A stretch of 41,518 bases of DNA, from the IMG/VR virus record IMGVR_UViG_2802429248_000002. One strand, given 5' to 3'. The position numbers were made by a program, and so were the translations under genes. The stretch's first letter is position 1. Every line of letters starts with the position of its first letter. The stretch comes from a virus. Taxonomy: Duplodnaviria; Heunggongvirae; Uroviricota; Caudoviricetes. Positions 3,377 to 35,989 of the stretch are shown piece after piece. The notes under the pieces were generated by a model. It was not told the origin of the DNA, searched no databases, and saw nothing but the letters and a program-made list of their open reading frames with translations.

Positions 3377-6133
3377 TTAGCTACTTTCAAGCATTGCAAG
3401 ACGTGATTCTATTTTTTCGATTCTTCTACGCAAATAAGCTGACTCAAGCCATAAACACTGGTCAGTACGGATACCCCACCTATTTCCAGCCTTGCAAACC
3501 AGAGTTCGCTCTTCTGTTTCGTATTCTTCTTCCATCTCAATTTCGACGCCATCCACAACTTTAGTGATCATCCTTACCGCCATCACTGGCGCGTATTTAT
3601 CATCCCATTCATCGTAACAGAGAAGGCCAAATCTGGTTCCATCAATCCCATGCGCGAGGAAAGTGTCTCTCACTTGTTGTGCTATAACACCAAAATGCCA
3701 GCGGGCACCATCTCCCTTTTCCCTGACGGCATCAAGCCAGCGAAAAGCTACAATCCTGATATCTCCCCATGCATCCAGAATTGCATCACCTTCATAACCA
3801 CGAGACATATACAAGCTGAGCTCACTTGTACTAATCGGTTCACTTTTTTCTCTACCATCTGATGTGTTTATCGAACCGTTCGCAGAATAAACCTGTGCCC
3901 ATCTAAATGATGGTGCACCAAGAGATTTGCTGTTATCAATAATTGGTGAAAAATTACCTTTAATAGCAATATTTCCAGAGTCGCCGAATATATTAATAAC
4001 TGCAGAGTCATCACCATGGTTTTTTACGCTTAAGTTTCTTGATGAAATATTTATATCTTTGTTATATCCACTAACATTAATCCATCTTTTACCATCAATG
4101 TGATACCCGTAAATATTTCCGTTTGATTGTTCGTCAGGTGACTCTCTAAGAACAATAGCATCTACTCCAGACGACCATTGTATTTTTGTATCTGTAGGCC
4201 TCCAGTTCTTTATAATGAACGAACCATCAGTAAACTCCGTTTTTATTTGTCTATTGTCTACAAATGCGTCTCTTGGTTTAAACTCACTTGTGTTAACGCT
4301 GCTCTGAAGATCAGAAGCAAAAAATCTAAGATTTCCTGTATAACCCTTAGTCTCGGTCAGGTTATACGCAATCATAATTCCATTTTCAAACTCAGATGAT
4401 GTTATTTTAACATCACGGCAATCACCAAAAATGCAATTTCCTTTATCAAATGTTGTTTGAGCTTTGAATTTATCAAACCTTAAATTACGAACAGGGAAAC
4501 CATCAACCTCTAATGCAAAGGATGCAGGAAGGCCAAAGTATTCTGATGGCTTACCTGATGTATGATCAAGAGTAGTGGCTACTGTATTCTCAAAAACAGT
4601 CCCGCTAAAATTATTACCAATTGACGGAAACCTGATTACACTTATTGTACCTTGTATTTCAGGAGAAATACCAGATAGTGTGATGTTAGCTCCATCAAAT
4701 GATGCATCTGAATACGTATATACTGATTCACTGCCAGCAATTTTAAACTGTTTAACTGAAGTTATTCTCATCGACTTTTTATGTTTAAATGTCACTGAGC
4801 TTTCAGTATTACTTACAAGATCAATCTGAGGGCTATTCCTTATCGCGATCCCTGACTGGACATAAACGTTATTAAAGTGCGTTTTTTCAGGATTTCCCTT
4901 CATTGAAAGGCTCCCGTCATTTTCTGTCAGTAGTAGTCCTTTTACCCTCCAATAGCCGACAATCTGTACGTTATCAATAACTGAATCACAGCTATCGTAT
5001 ACATGCAACCCTATATCCCAGTCATCACCCAATGAATAAGAATCAGGGTTATTGTATCCTTCAATACCATTTTTACTTACCATTATTCTCAGGTTGCGTA
5101 ACTGTGATGCCCTGTTGATACTAACAGCTACGCTCATGGCTTTTGGTGTAGCAGGAGTAACACCTACAGAATCTTCATTTGTAAACTCAGTGAACTTACA
5201 AGATATCCCTTCAACAATTTTAACTGGTCTTTCATTAGAGATGTTAAAAAAATATTTGTTTTTTTCTCCATCACCAGTAAATACAAGATGGGTTCCTTTA
5301 CTCCAACTTTTTAATAATCTTTCAGGCGCTGGTCTATATGTATCCCAATAATCAATGCCATCACCAATTAAAGACACTCCAGGAGGCACATCTATGTTCT
5401 TAGAAATCATCCATTTACCTGCAGGTATTCTAACGACACTTGCACCAGAATTTATCGCATTAATTAACCATTCAGACGCATCAACTTCAAAATTTAATGC
5501 AGCATATCTTTGCTCAAACGGAACAAAATCAAGAGCGTTAACGTTATCCCGCATCTTATCCTGGAACGTTCGGTATACTGCTCCAGAACCATACTGAATA
5601 AACCAACCAAAACCACCAACAACTCCGGCGATTGCAGCATCAACATAATTGCGCATTGATCGATTATTTACAGCATCCTGCTCAAGTGATGGATCTGCAA
5701 GGTTAGAAATTTTGTTTTGCTTTGCATCGTAATATTTTGCAAGCAAAGATGGTTTCATCAATGCACGTCTGAACCATCCAAAACATTGCTGGATCAGCAT
5801 CGTCAGATAGTCAAAGGCATCTTCATGCACCTCGGGGAAAAATTTTCCCTGATTACGAAGATCAGTCTCCTGCACCACATCAAGCACACGATCTATCGTA
5901 ATTCGCCATCCAGCAGCAAGCGGCGACGGAAGAACAACAGAACCGCCACTATAAGTGCCCGCCCCTGTTACCGTATAACCGGTATCCAGAACCAATTCTG
6001 TTACGTTCCCGTTCAGGTCAGACACCTGAACAACCAGGTCGGATTTTTTGAAAATACGGAAGGTATACGGAAATGATGTCGTAGCTCCGTTACCTGTGTA
6101 TTCGTTGTGGTCAACTTCGGTTGAGACCGTCAT
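3377..6133 (-). CDS. Tailspike protein with C-terminal intramolecular-chaperone-like domain
   Basis: 918 aa. N-terminus MTVSTEVDHNEYTGNG..TSFPYTFRIFKKSDLVV resembles the conserved particle-binding head of epsilon15/phiV10-type tailspikes (memory). Central region is Asn/Ser/Gly-rich as in beta-helix depolymerases. C-terminal ~150 aa (..TSDGREK..) resembles the self-cleaving chaperone domain (peptidase S74-like) of endosialidase-type tailspikes. Confidence 0.8.
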   Translation of the reverse strand: MTVSTEVDHNEYTGNGATTSFPYTFRIFKKSDLVVQVSDLNGNVTELVLDTGYTVTGAGTYSGGSVVLPSPLAAGWRITIDRVLDVVQETDLRNQGKFFPEVHEDAFDYLTMLIQQCFGWFRRALMKPSLLAKYYDAKQNKISNLADPSLEQDAVNNRSMRNYVDAAIAGVVGGFGWFIQYGSGAVYRTFQDKMRDNVNALDFVPFEQRYAALNFEVDASEWLINAINSGASVVRIPAGKWMISKNIDVPPGVSLIGDGIDYWDTYRPAPERLLKSWSKGTHLVFTGDGEKNKYFFNISNERPVKIVEGISCKFTEFTNEDSVGVTPATPKAMSVAVSINRASQLRNLRIMVSKNGIEGYNNPDSYSLGDDWDIGLHVYDSCDSVIDNVQIVGYWRVKGLLLTENDGSLSMKGNPEKTHFNNVYVQSGIAIRNSPQIDLVSNTESSVTFKHKKSMRITSVKQFKIAGSESVYTYSDASFDGANITLSGISPEIQGTISVIRFPSIGNNFSGTVFENTVATTLDHTSGKPSEYFGLPASFALEVDGFPVRNLRFDKFKAQTTFDKGNCIFGDCRDVKITSSEFENGIMIAYNLTETKGYTGNLRFFASDLQSSVNTSEFKPRDAFVDNRQIKTEFTDGSFIIKNWRPTDTKIQWSSGVDAIVLRESPDEQSNGNIYGYHIDGKRWINVSGYNKDINISSRNLSVKNHGDDSAVINIFGDSGNIAIKGNFSPIIDNSKSLGAPSFRWAQVYSANGSINTSDGREKSEPISTSELSLYMSRGYEGDAILDAWGDIRIVAFRWLDAVREKGDGARWHFGVIAQQVRDTFLAHGIDGTRFGLLCYDEWDDKYAPVMAVRMITKVVDGVEIEMEEEYETEERTLVCKAGNRWGIRTDQCLWLESAYLRRRIEKIESRLAMLESS

Positions 6134-6238
6134 GTTAAATCTCCAGATAGTCGCAGCACCCGTTGCGCCGCATATCTGGTTATTCTATTACCTGAAAAAC
6201 CACATATGGATAGAAAGACTGTAAATACGAACAGATAT

Positions 6239-6253
6239 TACCTTTCAGGTGAT
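6239..6253. promoter_or_regulatory. Operator-like palindrome TTACCTTTCAGGTGA (imperfect member of the TTACC-N5-GGTAA family)
   Basis: Lies in the divergent region between the tailspike start (6133) and the LexA-box gene (6329). Confidence 0.45.
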
Positions 6254-6307: not shown

Positions 6308-6328
6308 TTATTGCATGGAGAAGATAAG

Positions 6329-6586
6329 ATGCAGCAGTATCACTATCCACTGGAAGACGGATTTACCGAAAGGATTCACACGCCGGGAGGCGTCAGGTCA
6401 CTGGTGGAGGGATCGCACTTGATGAAATTACTCCGGGATCTCGATAAGGATGGATTTAATGTCGATGGCCCACTTGCCGAACTGACTGCACTGATTAACT
6501 ACGTCACCAGCTCACAGATGTCTATGCGGGATCTGCAAACACATCTCGACTATTGTGCCGAACAATTACGAAAACAAACCCGGTAA
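6329..6586 (+). CDS. Small SOS-regulated protein, antirepressor C-terminal-domain-like (Tum/Ant-like candidate)
   Basis: ATG 6329 with GGAG 8 nt upstream; 85 aa. About half its residues match the C-terminal ~80 aa of the Bro-N protein at 7732-8418 (shared LxxDG.DV.G..AELT...........RD.QTH). Confidence 0.6.
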   Translation: MQQYHYPLEDGFTERIHTPGGVRSLVEGSHLMKLLRDLDKDGFNVDGPLAELTALINYVTSSQMSMRDLQTHLDYCAEQLRKQTR

Positions 6587-6608: not shown

Positions 6609-7337
6609 CTATCGTTTCGCTTTGTGCTCATCCCAGCACGTTTTGCACCATGCCATTAAGCCGTCCGCATTTTGATTATTAGGGTAAAAGCTGGTTCGTT
6701 TTCTGCGGACATTACAAATTGGGCACCACTTCATATGGCGTGTATTCTTTGGGCCATCGAGACACCTTGCACACCATTTAGTCAATCCATCTGGATTTTT
6801 TGACGATTTCCTGAATTTTTCATATGGAAGGTTTATTCTGCATCGCAAGCACTGCTTGCTACCACTTGAAACTCTGTTAGCTGATTCTTCTTTTGGCGGC
6901 GATACAGAAGGTATTCTTGCTGGCTCTGATATTGCCTGAGGTGCTTTTTTAGATGACTGAGACGATATGTCATCACCAGGGAATCTTCCATGATATGCCG
7001 GACGCGTTGACACTCCAGGTGGAATCTCAGCTGTAAACGGCTTTGGCTGAATCAGTTGCCTCTCTTTTGCTAACTCCTGCTGTTTATAATATGTCTGGAT
7101 TACCGCACTATCATAAGCAGGAGGTGCGGAAATATTAGGCGCATTACCTCCAGTTTTTTGAAACTGAGTAGAGGTGTGTTCTATCACCTGTGTACGATTA
7201 ATCGTTATCTCCCCATCTTCGGTCTTTATCGTTTTGTTATGATTAACGACCGTACGATCAGAGATCTTAGTCTTGTTCTGGTTGATAACGTAAATAATCA
7301 CCGCAACCACACCAACAACTATCCAGAAAACTTCCAT
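6609..7337 (-). CDS. Membrane-anchored protein with tandem Cys-rich (zinc-ribbon-like) C-terminal repeats, unknown function
   Basis: 242 aa. N-terminal TM helix (EVFWIVVGVVAVIIYVI), Pro/Ser-rich linker, then two repeats of CxxC..(F/Y)..DGL..WCxxC. Operator palindrome about 20 bp upstream of the start codon. Confidence 0.55.
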   Translation of the reverse strand: MEVFWIVVGVVAVIIYVINQNKTKISDRTVVNHNKTIKTEDGEITINRTQVIEHTSTQFQKTGGNAPNISAPPAYDSAVIQTYYKQQELAKERQLIQPKPFTAEIPPGVSTRPAYHGRFPGDDISSQSSKKAPQAISEPARIPSVSPPKEESANRVSSGSKQCLRCRINLPYEKFRKSSKNPDGLTKWCARCLDGPKNTRHMKWCPICNVRRKRTSFYPNNQNADGLMAWCKTCWDEHKAKR

Positions 7338-7357
7338 TGCTTTTCCTCACAATAACA

Positions 7358-7465
7358 TTACCTTAAAGGTAATATCTTGCTTTCAGGTGATCAAGCGTTA
7401 AACGCAATCAACCAAATACGGTTGATTTTAATGTTTCTTCGCGCTTATCATTACCTTTACGGTAA
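7358..7465. promoter_or_regulatory. Two operator palindromes (TTACCTTAAAGGTAA 7358-7372; TTACCTTTACGGTAA 7451-7465) in the divergent region between 6609-7337 and 7732-8418
   Basis: On the minus strand TTGATC-17 bp-TACCTT precedes the first palindrome, giving a promoter whose -10 is overlapped by the operator. A TTGATT (7422-7427)-17 bp-TTATCA (7445-7450) plus-strand promoter abuts the second palindrome. Confidence 0.5.
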
Positions 7466-7558
7466 ATTTACATAGCACTCCTCTTGTGCCATAGTAATCG
7501 GGCACTGGCAAAATCCAGTGCCGGGATTGGCGTCCCGGATTACTACAGAGGCACATAT

Positions 7559-7578
7559 GCCGCATAAGCGGTTTTTTT
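7559..7578 (+). terminator. Short intrinsic terminator/attenuator-like hairpin in the leader of the Bro-N gene
   Basis: Stem GCCGC (7559-7563), loop ATAA, GCGG, then seven T (7572-7578); preceded by an 8-bp stem hairpin GGCACTGG-CAAAAT-CCAGTGCC (7501-7522). Confidence 0.4.
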
Positions 7579-7731
7579 ATGTGTAAAGCGCACCTATTCT
7601 ATGGTGGGCTGTGTGGGGGCACCGAAAGGTGCGCCGGGTCCTTTGTAGCCGGTTACGCCAACCCTGCACAGTTCACCACCAACCGATTGGCGTCGGTAGT
7701 GGTGATTAACCTAACTACAAAGGTGATCACT

Positions 7732-8418
7732 ATGACTGCTAACGTAACCCCATCTGTTTTTCATTTTGAATCAGAAGCAACCATTCGAGCCATTGTTATT
7801 GATGGAAATCCTTGGTTTGTTGCCAAAGACGTTATTAAAGCTCTTCAACTGACAAACCCCACTATGTCAATAAAATCTCTTGATGATGATGAAAGGGCTA
7901 AATTTAACTTAGGCCGTCAAGGCGAAACCAATATTATCAACGAGTCAGGCCTCTACACACTGATCCTCCGCTGCCGCGATGCGGTGACACCAGGCACTAT
8001 CCCATACCGCTTTCGTAAATGGGTTACAGGTGAGGTTCTTCCTCAGATCCGCCGCACCGGAAGTTACATTAAAAACTCGCTCCCGCAAGAAGAACGCATA
8101 AAGATGGTTGCCGACCAGGTAGCCAACGCCACAGCATCAGCAGTGATGCAGGCAATGAAGATAGAGAACAAAACCTACAGCGCCCCACTAAAGCCCGGCT
8201 ACCGCAGTCTGATTCACTCGCCGTCTGGTGTTCTCGGCCTGACGGAGAACTCACTGCTGATGAATCTGCTGAACCAGTTACAGGACGACGGGCACGACGT
8301 ATCGGGCGCGGCGGCGGAGTTGACCACCATGTTCTGCTACATCGTCGGTGTGAACAAATGCCTGCGTGATATCCAGACGCACGCGGAGTACATCAACGAC
8401 AAAGCAGGGTTCTTCTGA
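7732..8418 (+). CDS. Bro-N domain protein with antirepressor-like C-terminal domain
   Basis: Start taken at MTANVT (ATG 7732, aaaggtga upstream); the longer track ORF begins in a structured leader. N-terminus (FHFESEATIRAIVIDGNPWFVAKDVIKALQLTNP) matches the Bro-N signature; C-terminus is paralogous to the 6329-6586 protein. Confidence 0.7.
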   Translation: MTANVTPSVFHFESEATIRAIVIDGNPWFVAKDVIKALQLTNPTMSIKSLDDDERAKFNLGRQGETNIINESGLYTLILRCRDAVTPGTIPYRFRKWVTGEVLPQIRRTGSYIKNSLPQEERIKMVADQVANATASAVMQAMKIENKTYSAPLKPGYRSLIHSPSGVLGLTENSLLMNLLNQLQDDGHDVSGAAAELTTMFCYIVGVNKCLRDIQTHAEYINDKAGFF

Positions 8419-8434
8419 CGGGCGGTGGCATTCG

Positions 8435-8460
8435 TTAAAACAAGGCCGCTTTTGCGGCCT
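8435..8460 (-). terminator. Intrinsic terminator at the 3' end of the minus-strand virion operon
   Basis: GGCCGC-TTTT-GCGGCC hairpin (8444-8459) followed on the minus strand by TTGTTTTAA; lies just after the lipoprotein gene stop (8476). Confidence 0.55.
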
Positions 8461-8475
8461 GTGACATGTCACGAC

Positions 8476-8889
8476 TTATAAAGATGACTGATATTTTACA
8501 ACTCTGTTCATGGCATCTTTTTTCACCGAGCTGATATCAGTTCTTATTTTGGCTTCGTCATTACTGTTTATCATGCTATTAACTTTTTGCACTGACATGC
8601 CGTTTCTTTCAGCCATTGCACATACAGCAGCATCGTATGAAGAACTCGCTGCGATGGATATCACCTTGTTACACTCAAACACAGCACCTTCAGCAATATC
8701 AGATGCCGATGATGCTGGCTTGGTATAAGTCTTGACGTAGTGATCAATACAACTATCCTTCGCCGTCTTGGCAAGAGAAAAATCCATTTTAACTTTGTCG
8801 CAATATGCCTTATCAACACCGTCATAAACATCATAGGATGTCGAGCAAGCGGATATCAAAAATACCGATAACAGCAATAATTCCTTCAT
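8476..8889 (-). CDS. Phage-encoded lipoprotein (moron), candidate superinfection-exclusion or surface factor
   Basis: 137 aa; signal peptide MKELLLLSVFLISAC with lipobox; six further Cys; gene looks AT-rich by eye; tacked on 9 bp after the stop of the large internal virion protein gene. Confidence 0.55.
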   Translation of the reverse strand: MKELLLLSVFLISACSTSYDVYDGVDKAYCDKVKMDFSLAKTAKDSCIDHYVKTYTKPASSASDIAEGAVFECNKVISIAASSSYDAAVCAMAERNGMSVQKVNSMINSNDEAKIRTDISSVKKDAMNRVVKYQSSL

Positions 8890-25311: not shown

Positions 25312-25388
25312 GTGGCATTAGCTCAGTTGGACAGAGCAACCGCCTTCTAAGCGGTTGGTCGCAGGTTCGAATCCTGCATGCCACGCCA
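25312..25388 (+). tRNA. tRNA-Arg (anticodon UCU), phage-encoded
   Basis: Cloverleaf readable by eye: acceptor GTGGCAT/ATGCCAC, D-arm GCTC-AGTTGGACA-GAGC, anticodon stem ACCGC/GCGGT with loop CTTCTAA, variable TGGTC, T-arm GCAGG-TTCGAAT-CCTGC, discriminator G, encoded CCA. Confidence 0.9.
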
Positions 25389-35404: not shown

Positions 35405-35989
35405 ATGAAAAGTATCCAGGACGTCCGCAGGCAAAATCTCAACGACTTGATCGACCGTGAATTCAATGGTGTTCAGACGCGGATGGCTGAAAAACTTGGA
35501 ACTCAGGCAAATCTGGTAAACCGCTGGGCTCTTGGCAAGAAGGTTATCGGCGACCAGGTTGCGCGAAAAATTGAAGCTGCCGCCAATAAACCCCGTAACT
35601 GGCTTGATATCGATCGCTCGCTTTCTCAGGAAGGTTTTCAGCCTGTCGGCCCGAGTGATATAGGTCAGCTGGCTGCTCACAACCTGGAACGCTGGATGAG
35701 CGAAAGCCGCGACCTTTCAACGCAGGGAAAACTACACCGCGCATCCGGCGTCGCCCAGGTGACAATCAGCCGCCTGTTAAACAATGAGGTCAGCGTTTCC
35801 ATTTCCACCCTGGAGAATGTTGCATCCGCATTCGGGCGTCATGGCTATGAATTACTGATTCACCCGCACGACCCTGCGACTATCAACTATGACCGCTCGC
35901 GCTACGCATTGTTACCCGAAACCGAGAAAGCAAAGATCGAAAGTTACATTGAATTTGTCATCAACCAGAACGAAAAAAACAAACAATAA
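35405..35989 (+). CDS. XRE-family repressor-like protein with two HTH motifs and no S24 autocleavage domain (putative immunity repressor)
   Basis: 194 aa; HTH 1 GVQTRMAEKLGTQANLVNRW, HTH 2 ASGVAQVTISRLLNNEVSVS; no GDSM/Ser-Lys peptidase signature; flanked by operator clusters on both sides; terminator immediately downstream. Confidence 0.55.
   Translation: MKSIQDVRRQNLNDLIDREFNGVQTRMAEKLGTQANLVNRWALGKKVIGDQVARKIEAAANKPRNWLDIDRSLSQEGFQPVGPSDIGQLAAHNLERWMSESRDLSTQGKLHRASGVAQVTISRLLNNEVSVSISTLENVASAFGRHGYELLIHPHDPATINYDRSRYALLPETEKAKIESYIEFVINQNEKNKQ

Follow-up and report, generated by a model that had tools for sequence, protein, structure and literature searches.

The leader of the Bro-N gene in virus record IMGVR_UViG_2802429248_000002 raises the question of how a validated antirepressor is kept silent in a prophage. 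The record, a stretch of 41,518 nucleotides (nt) referred to here as the window, represents an epsilon15-like (Uetakevirus) E. coli prophage, and the leader lies between a palindrome at about position 7451 and the ATG at 7732, which opens a 228-amino acid (aa) Bro-N open reading frame (ORF). A preliminary description had presented this region as a structured, terminator-containing leader downstream of an operator-gated promoter, and had proposed either a discrete small RNA (sRNA) of about 120 nt or an attenuator, with the ant genes of P22-type phages as precedent. The regulatory RNA leader, with a terminator-ended sRNA in front of an antirepressor gene, is borne out by our analysis, while the single sRNA of about 120 nt gives way to two RNA genes, IsrK and C4. 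We conclude, with a probability of about 0.85, that the leader is an immI-type antirepressor control cassette resembling the c4-icd-ant leader of phage P1. It is a cassette of the ordinary two-RNA kind, previously unannotated in this prophage, and it bears on how the Bro-N antirepressor stays silent here as well as in phiV10, TL-2011b, ZX5, and Tyrion.

Two RNA families in the leader

A scan of the whole window against Rfam returned two full-length matches above the gathering score in the leader, isrK (RF01394) and C4 (RF01695), with E-values of approximately 1e-14 to 1e-16 (4e-14 for C4; Table 1). A permissive scan additionally returned c4-a1b1 (RF03163, "a1, b1 targets of C4 antisense RNA") at 7489-7541 (E = 3e-10), overlapping IsrK; the C4 and c4-a1b1 motifs were defined by Weinberg et al. 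(2010). A further match, to lysM-TM7, scored far under its gathering score and was dismissed as noise.

The window was compared with 17 further loci, from phiV10, Tyrion, a Klebsiella phage, APSE-7, nine Stx/lambdoid E. coli phages, SfV, phiP27, P1, and Gifsy-1 (18 loci in total). A C4 match is present in all 18 loci, and a full isrK match lies directly 5′ of C4 in all of them except P1, which has c4-a1b1 in that place. The antirepressor-type domains encoded downstream differ by phage (Bro-N, ORF6N with or without P22_AR_C, Phage_pRha, and Icd), and the cassette is therefore portable.

All of the structural elements listed in the preliminary description were recovered within 1-2 nt of its coordinates, including the palindrome (as ATTACCTTTACGGTAAA at 7450-7466), a perfect 8-bp hairpin (arms 7501-7508 and 7515-7522), a longer imperfect inverted repeat (arms 7492-7505 and 7532-7545, 14 nt, 86% complementary), a short hairpin (stem 7559-7572, followed by TTTTTTT) that was also caught by a terminator scan, and GC-rich helices at approximately 7588-7680. 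Two of these elements acquire a different meaning from the one first given to them. The GC-rich hairpins, read as leader structure, are the C4 antisense RNA itself, which would be the main regulator, and the terminator, read as part of a cis attenuator, marks the end of an independent RNA with copies of the C4 target boxes, possibly decoys. The leader as a whole (7502-7750) folds with a z-score of -5.4, with none of 200 shuffles folding equally well, and the sub-regions 7502-7578, 7597-7683, and 7684-7745 have z-scores of -2.5, -3.6, and -4.0, respectively.

Formal pair counts were made on a MAFFT alignment of 17 sequences, with shuffled and slid-partner controls. Internal helices of C4 and IsrK are 93-100% paired and carry many compensatory changes. 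In IsrK, hairpin 1 shows compensatory changes in 6 of 7 pairs and the terminator stem is 81% paired. The minimum free energy (MFE) fold of C4 comprises a 17-bp outer stem, two inner hairpins, and a single-stranded junction; its helices are 97-100% paired, with compensatory changes in 5/17, 5/5, and 1/5 pairs. Alignment to the annotated 77-nt c4 RNA of P1 predicts a mature C4 of 78 nt (7603-7680), and the sequence ACCA is found at the 3′ flank of C4, after the stem. In the P1 c4 literature, Hartmann et al. reportedly described, in 1995, cutting by RNase P at the 5′ end of C4.

The IsrK terminator looks weak, which implies partial read-through; read-through of the homologous IsrK terminator has been measured in Gifsy-1 (PMC4825925). 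The helix enclosing the terminator, which can form in read-through transcripts only, is predicted for all but one of the 18 loci, and its sequence varies among them (e.g., GCGCAU/AUGCGU, GCGACAA/UUGUCGU, and GGCGAUA/UAUCGUC). In the imperfect inverted repeat noted above, the -10/start region of the IsrK promoter is complementary to the segment just 3′ of hairpin 2; the repeat would matter as RNA only if a promoter-like site further upstream (7422-7451) is used.

Complementary boxes and their covariation

Boxes a1 and b1, in IsrK, and boxes a2 and b2, between C4 and the Bro-N start codon, are complementary to the a′ junction and the b′ loop of C4. In the window, b′ and b2 form 9 of 9 possible pairs, and a′ pairs at 7 of 7 positions with a1 as well as with a2. 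An intrinsic terminator stands between b1 and C4 in all 18 loci.

The 18 loci represent a clean natural experiment on this pairing, as they include 8 distinct a′ 7-mers and approximately 12 b′ loop variants. The exact reverse complement of a′ is found at the same position of IsrK hairpin 2 in 17 of the 18 loci, and it is found again 0-6 nt 3′ of C4, also in 17/18. In the alignment, a1 and a′ are 99.2% paired with compensatory changes in 5 of 7 pairs, and all five variable pairs between a′ and a2 are compensatory; no shuffle reached values as high as those observed, and sliding the partner reduced pairing to 35-47%. The b boxes vary in length and are mis-registered in the alignment; run lengths were thus used for them instead of formal pair counts. 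Complementary runs between b′ and b2 have a mean of 10.6 nt for cognate combinations, as compared to 6.8 nt for non-cognate ones. Box b2 is located on the Shine-Dalgarno sequence in every one of the 18 loci, and its end is 6-16 nt from the start codon in each of them (6-10 nt in 16).

Mean duplex energies calculated with RNAduplex (approximately 36 nt of C4 against 38-58 nt of target) favour cognate pairs, with -31.5 kcal/mol for cognate and -22.7 kcal/mol for non-cognate combinations in the downstream set, and -34.5 and -26.0 kcal/mol, respectively, in the IsrK set. As the CCGG stems common to these long segments can pair mutually, the ranks were noisy, and the energies were replaced by the box-level tests. 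A search of the window for other C4 targets found the b2 9-mer nowhere but at this locus and near-matches to a2 at chance level.

The three-way covariation of boxes, junction, and loop supports the view that C4 pairs directly with two partners, the ribosome-binding site and the IsrK RNA. As a1 and b1 also covary with C4, some function away from the ribosome-binding site is needed; the covariation cannot distinguish among a decoy, feedback on termination, and an aid to folding or processing.

Between a2 and b2 lies another pairing element, GUGGUGA. Its pairing with the 3′ strand of the C4 outer stem (7673-7679) is 99.2% paired with three compensatory pairs, and in the predicted local hairpin of 7684-7745 it can help to hide the Shine-Dalgarno sequence; this two-way pairing suggests an alternative-structure switch. 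In the MFE fold of the whole leader, IsrK (7523-7551) pairs with C4 (7640-7665) and the Shine-Dalgarno sequence is sequestered.

Control of the cassette and alternative explanations

The candidate IsrK promoter predicts a start at approximately G7502, which is position 1 of the isrK model, and the promoter stretch TGCCATAGT is kept in all four epsilon15-type loci. In phiV10, Tyrion, and the Klebsiella phage, the TTACC and GGTAA half-sites of the adjoining palindrome are conserved while the 5-nt spacer is variable; the lambdoid cassettes have another promoter, without a TTACC-N5-GGTAA operator. The preliminary description had the promoter gated by an operator, and the distribution of the palindrome agrees with that view. 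The palindrome occurs 13 or 14 times in the window against 1.3 expected; a search for ATTACC-N5-GGTAAT with up to two mismatches returned 14 sites against 1.33 expected (none of 100 shuffles had as many), i.e., an approximately 10-fold enrichment. These operator-like sites are intergenic, and three of them (35334, 36046, and 36107) flank the prophage repressor gene. Because the motif recurs across the window and flanks this gene, the palindrome at 7450-7466 is supported as an operator. The repressor protein is 100% identical to ZX5 ORF21 and to the phiV10 repressor, and over-expression of ZX5 ORF21 abolished free phage (PMC9782041); the protein is presumed to be the trans-acting factor on the palindromes. 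Judged from their sequence, the dispersed sites suggest that this epsilon15-like phage has a multi-operator regulon in the style of P1 C1. Within the prophage, a tRNA-Arg gene (anticodon TCT; 25312-25388, plus strand) has operator-like sites on either side (24974 and 25591).

The regulated gene encodes a protein 81% identical to ORF4 of vB_EcoP_ZX5, a tested antirepressor, over-expression of which lowered prophage titre approximately 1000-fold (PMC9782041). A 91-aa ORF at 6311-6586 (plus strand), a homologue of epsilon15p19 and phiV10p24, corresponds to the C-terminal domain of the Bro-N antirepressor as a free-standing paralogue (41% identity, E = 5e-16; phrog_450 and phrog_15539 in common) and has its own operator-like site at 6237-6253; its product might act together with the antirepressor as a partner or compete with it.

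These observations are consistent with the following order of events. The prophage repressor, bound to the 7450-7466 palindrome, would gate the adjoining sigma-70 promoter, so that transcription from approximately 7502 would be repressed in the lysogen. Once it starts, much of the transcription would end at the weak terminator, producing the predicted 77-nt IsrK with boxes a1 and b1. Read-through RNA would include C4, which, by analogy with P1 and Gifsy-1, would be excised, with its 5′ end made by RNase P, as a stable RNA of approximately 78 nt (7603-7680). The C4 a′ junction and b′ loop, whose complementarity to a2 and b2 is accompanied by the covariation described above, may then pair with these boxes on the same or sister transcripts. 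As b2 covers the Bro-N Shine-Dalgarno sequence, translation would be blocked and transcription would probably be subject to polarity, as in P1. The a1 and b1 copies in IsrK would bind the same C4 sites, so that IsrK may act as a decoy or anti-antisense RNA; alternatively, a1 and b1 may be a site of C4 feedback on termination, as in P4 and N15. This would explain why over-expression of IsrK switches on the antirepressor in Gifsy-1. In sum, production of the antirepressor would require both loss of the repressor and a C4 that is outrun or titrated.

A more specific version, which we put forward tentatively and consider somewhat doubtful, is that IsrK is a dedicated C4 decoy, with both RNAs made from one promoter and the leak of the weak terminator setting the ratio of decoy to repressor, resulting in a self-contained three-RNA switch. 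If true, it would unify the separately described P1 c4, P4 CI, N15 CA, and Gifsy-1 IsrK systems and would represent a portable gate with reprogrammable specificity (at least 8 a and approximately 12 b variants seen) in front of unrelated antirepressor families. It would also make cross-talk possible among co-resident prophages with common boxes; the a box of the window prophage is identical in Stx phages, SfV, and Gifsy-1.

Several points weigh against an immI-type cassette that works as outlined above. For this prophage, the transcription start, the efficiency of termination, the processing of C4, and the stability of the RNAs are taken from homologous systems. The hexamers of the IsrK promoter match the consensus at just 9 of 12 positions, and the c4-a1b1 match (45.1 bits) falls 1.6 bits under its gathering score of 46.7, although it has both hairpins as well as box a1; in the Stx phages, Gifsy-1, and P1, the copies exceed this score. 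No icd-like ORF was found between C4 and the antirepressor gene, and the P1 scheme, in which translational repression of icd is followed by Rho polarity on ant, is therefore not literally transferable. For Gifsy-1, the authors invoke refolding of a long mRNA and coupling to orf45 rather than titration of a processed C4-like RNA, and co-expression of STnc1160 left the toxicity of IsrK unrelieved (PMC4825925).

The strongest competitor, a real possibility that we nevertheless do not favour, is control of the type described for P4 and N15, in which C4 pairs with a1/b1 (and a2/b2) of the nascent RNA and raises termination at the IsrK terminator or, through Rho, further downstream, so that the antirepressor would be controlled mainly by transcriptional attenuation in trans and not by masking of the ribosome-binding site. 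This mode would account for the terminator that separates b1 from C4 in 18/18 loci and for the covariation of a1/b1 with C4, which needs a function not at the ribosome-binding site; moreover, isrK-like and C4 matches are found in both P4 (CI RNA region) and N15 immA, and P4 CI causes premature termination via seqA and seqC (PMC4825925). However, the IsrK fold shows no alternative antiterminator that binding of C4 would remove, the terminator scan finds no terminator-like site between a2 and the ATG, and the position of b2 on the Shine-Dalgarno sequence in every locus points to translational control. Masking of the ribosome-binding site and termination of this type are not mutually exclusive. 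Positive control alone, as proposed for Gifsy-1, appears unlikely. It would have the IsrK sequence pair in cis with the C4/"orf45" region and silence the long mRNA, until free IsrK refolds the mRNA in trans and a small upstream ORF is translated, with the antirepressor made by coupling and C4 not acting as a trans repressor. The Gifsy-1 isrK-STnc1160/orf45-anrP locus is homologous, with both Rfam families in the same order, the long IsrK:C4 helix and the sequestered Shine-Dalgarno sequence are reproduced in the MFE fold of the whole leader, and IsrK in trans activates more than 100-fold in Gifsy-1 genetics (PMC4825925). In the window, however, the ORF that opens with ATG 7601 is 15 codons long, and its stop codon (7646-7648) is separated by 84 nt from ATG 7732, which makes translational coupling implausible, and across the 18 loci the ORF in the C4 5′ stem ranges from 14 codons to fully open, in various frames. 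The coupling part of the Gifsy-1 model should thus not apply here, and the strictly covarying a2 and b2 at the ribosome-binding site are left unexplained by this model.

The readings proposed initially, a single sRNA of about 120 nt or a classical cis attenuator analogous to P22 sar/ant, are improbable. The promoter-like site at 7422-7451, if used, would indeed yield a terminated RNA of approximately 120 nt ending at 7578, and the cassette lies among late genes, like P22 immI. Nevertheless, all of the structure is accounted for by two separate RNA families, and the element 3′ of the terminator is a conserved gene for a trans-acting RNA and not leader structure. The window scan gave no Rfam match to the sar family at the gathering score or at E ≤ 1, and the promoter scan found no minus-strand promoter-like site within 7500-7800, i.e., over the ribosome-binding site. 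Least credible of all is a coding leader, in which an ORF from ATG 7579, in frame with Bro-N and open over 7579-8418, would encode a 279-aa protein with an N-terminal extension. This ATG is directly 3′ of the U-run and lacks a Shine-Dalgarno sequence, the region evolves in the manner of an RNA, by compensatory changes, and the equivalent frame in phiV10, Tyrion, APSE, and most loci closes after 2-37 codons or is shifted; this explanation was rejected, as the frame is not kept open across loci.

Related cassettes and neighbouring features

The 1.2-kb locus shares 99.7% identity with a prophage in the chromosome of E. coli strain P4 and is 80-97% identical to TL-2011b, ZX5, phiV10, and Tyrion in the aligned part (approximately 60-80% of the locus). 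The leader RNAs are unannotated in the records of these relatives; what they show in this place is only "hypothetical protein" or, in phiV10, "terminator", and RefSeq shows nothing. Our results thus add two unannotated RNA genes to these records as an annotation fix, leaving the known picture of c4-type immunity unchanged as a tidy confirmation.

Among described systems, P1/P7 immI (Citron & Schuster 1990; NC_005856) has the same order of parts as the window; the P1 record lists the C1 operator Oc4, P2c4, P1c4, a1, b1, the 77-nt c4 RNA, a2, b2, icd, and ant. The two leaders also share a terminator-like hairpin, a′ in the junction, b′ in the loop of hairpin 2, and b2 on a ribosome-binding site, as well as an antirepressor output and control by a repressor with dispersed operators. 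Their C4 RNAs match the same Rfam family (68.8 bits for P1, 79.5 bits for the window), and the spacing is nearly identical: a2 follows at a distance of 4 nt in both, counted from the mature c4 of the P1 annotation and from the end of the Rfam match in the window, and b2 ends 8 nt (window) or 10 nt (P1) before the start codon. RNAs of the P1/P7 c4 type repress antirepressor synthesis and set the specificity of immunity. Unlike P1, the window has no icd, and b2 masks the Shine-Dalgarno sequence of the antirepressor itself, which is a Bro-N protein instead of Ant1/2; a′ reads ACGCCAA in the window and CUGUCAA in P1, the upstream element is a full IsrK as opposed to c4-a1b1 only, and the host phage is an integrated podovirus, whereas P1 is a plasmid myovirus.

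The Gifsy-1 isrK-orf45(STnc1160)-anrP locus (Hershko-Shalev et al. 2016, PMC4825925) likewise contains IsrK, a C4-family RNA, and an antirepressor-like gene, and it has a terminator that is read through and a boxes (UUGGCGU/ACGCCAA) identical to those of the window. The IsrK of Gifsy-1 is described as binding Hfq and as activating antirepressor translation in trans (PMC4825925). The same long-range IsrK:C4 helix (helix b-I of Gifsy-1) is predicted for both, and the MFE fold of the window leader mirrors the translationally silent "structure A" demonstrated for Gifsy-1 (PMC4825925). The b box differs (UCGGUGAU in Gifsy-1, CCUUUGUAG in the window), AnrP has an ORF6N domain and not Bro-N, and the Gifsy-1 promoter has no TTACC-N5-GGTAA operator. 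While orf45 overlaps the anrP start codon, its window equivalent is the distant 15-codon ORF described above, and the comparison of loci shows no conservation of "orf45" as an ORF. In APSE phages of Hamiltonella (Rouil et al. 2020, PMC7313666; LR794151), an isrK sRNA, a C4 sRNA with a′ and b′, and a Bro-N gene have already been annotated, with leader DNA approximately 69% similar to that of the window. These phages belong to another host and another genus, and their boxes (a′ GUCUCAA, b′ CCUUGUUAG) are unlike those of the window; the authors' a′ and b′ labels are swapped relative to P1, and they report a second C4 match in a polymerase gene (PMC7313666).

An isrK-like element followed by a C4-family RNA is also present in P4 (seqA-CI RNA-seqC) and N15 immA (CA RNA), where the processed RNA pairs with repeats both upstream and downstream of itself and the described output is premature transcription termination of replication (P4) or antirepressor (N15) genes and not masking of a ribosome-binding site. 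Taken together, by sequence, P1 c4, P4 CI, N15 CA, and Gifsy-1 IsrK, each the subject of experimental work, are one homologous cassette, and these systems fit the window in place of the P22 precedent of the preliminary description. P22 immI resembles the window in that an sRNA, sar, limits antirepressor synthesis and the ant unit lies among late genes, but sar is a cis-antisense RNA on the opposite strand across the ant ribosome-binding site, while both RNAs of the window are on the sense strand, upstream of the gene. The window has its own combination of boxes, with a as in Gifsy-1 and the Stx phages and b as in Tyrion and the Klebsiella phage; together with the lack of icd, the Bro-N product, and the epsilon15-type operator, this represents a modest difference from known instances.

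Table 1. Positions of the leader elements, regulatory sites, and associated genes. Coordinates are those of the window unless another phage is named.
Feature	Position	Strand	Remarks
lysM-TM7 Rfam match	7331-7467	-	19.7 bits (gathering score 61.5), E = 0.4
Operator-like palindrome ATTACCTTAAAGGTAAT	7357-7373		perfect, 17 bp; 20 nt 5′ of start codon of divergent gene 6609-7337 (-)
Candidate upstream promoter TTGATT-18-TATCAT	7422-7451	+	consensus match only
Operator-like palindrome ATTACCTTTACGGTAAA	7450-7466		half-sites TTACC/GGTAA; adjoins -35 of IsrK promoter
Candidate IsrK promoter	7467-7495	+	-35 TTTACA 7467-7472; 17-nt spacer; TG-extended -10 CATAGT 7490-7495
IsrK-type sRNA	7502-7578	+	77 nt by homology; RF01394, 76.8 bits (gathering score 50), model 1-77/77
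IsrK hairpin 1	7502-7521	+	
IsrK hairpin 2	7522-7537	+	followed by linker and intrinsic terminator
Box a1, UUGGCGU	7527-7533	+	loop and 3′ arm of IsrK hairpin 2; complementary to a′
Box b1, CUACAGAGG	7543-7551	+	IsrK linker; 8 Watson-Crick pairs and 1 G-U with b′ loop
Terminator-enclosing helix GCACAUA/UAUGUGU	7551-7557 with 7578-7584	+	possible in read-through transcripts only
IsrK intrinsic terminator	7559-7578	+	5-bp GC stem, 4-nt loop, U7
C4-type antisense RNA	7597-7683	+	RF01695, 79.5 bits (gathering score 45), model 1-87/87
b′, CCUUUGUAG	7640-7648	+	loop of C4 hairpin 2
a′, ACGCCAA	7655-7661	+	single-stranded junction of C4
Box a2, UUGGCGU	7687-7693	+	complementary to a′; 4 nt 3′ of C4 Rfam end
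GUGGUGA element	7699-7705	+	pairs with C4 outer-stem 3′ strand 7673-7679 or with sequence just 3′ of Shine-Dalgarno
Box b2, CUACAAAGG	7715-7723	+	overlaps Shine-Dalgarno AAGGUGAUCA (~7719-7729) of Bro-N gene
Regulated Bro-N antirepressor gene	7732-8418	+	228 aa; Pfam Bro-N 5e-20; PHROG "anti-repressor Ant" 6e-56
GC-rich hairpin AGGCCGCAAAAGCGGCCT	8443-8460		closes antirepressor transcription unit; terminator in phiV10 record
Prophage repressor gene	35405-35989	+	194 aa; HTH_3 domain
Operator-like 17-bp sites (start positions)	6237, 7357, 7450, 24974, 25591, 28529, 28547, 32941, 33003, 34949, 35334, 36046, 36107		perfect ATTACC-N5-GGTAAT copies at 7357, 33003, and 36046
P4, matches to Rfam C4/isrK	8420-8507, 8615-8692		CI/seqA region
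N15, matches to Rfam C4/isrK	8302-8389, 8415-8490		immA; annotated gene 32 overlaps C4 match

Several deposited coding sequences run over isrK and C4, i.e., SfVp37 (525-1361), PhiR47 Rha (525-1673), P27p16 (743-1402), and ASU11 gp46c (740-1402). These calls probably start too early; the leader frame happens to be open there, and the real start is probably the ATG just after b2.

The divergent 242-aa gene upstream of the cassette (6609-7337, minus strand) encodes a protein with an N-terminal hydrophobic segment and C-terminal CxxC-rich repeats (phrog_6762), with weak matches to endonuclease VII, HNH, and Lar-like proteins. The intergenic region between the divergent genes contains an AT-rich hairpin (AATCAACC...GGTTGATT; 7406-7427, plus strand) with T's behind it, which is terminator-like by consensus only. 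Further away, a 918-aa tail fibre or spike protein (3377-6133, minus strand) carries a C-terminal Peptidase_S74 (endosialidase chaperone) domain, which is typical of self-cleaving tailspikes.

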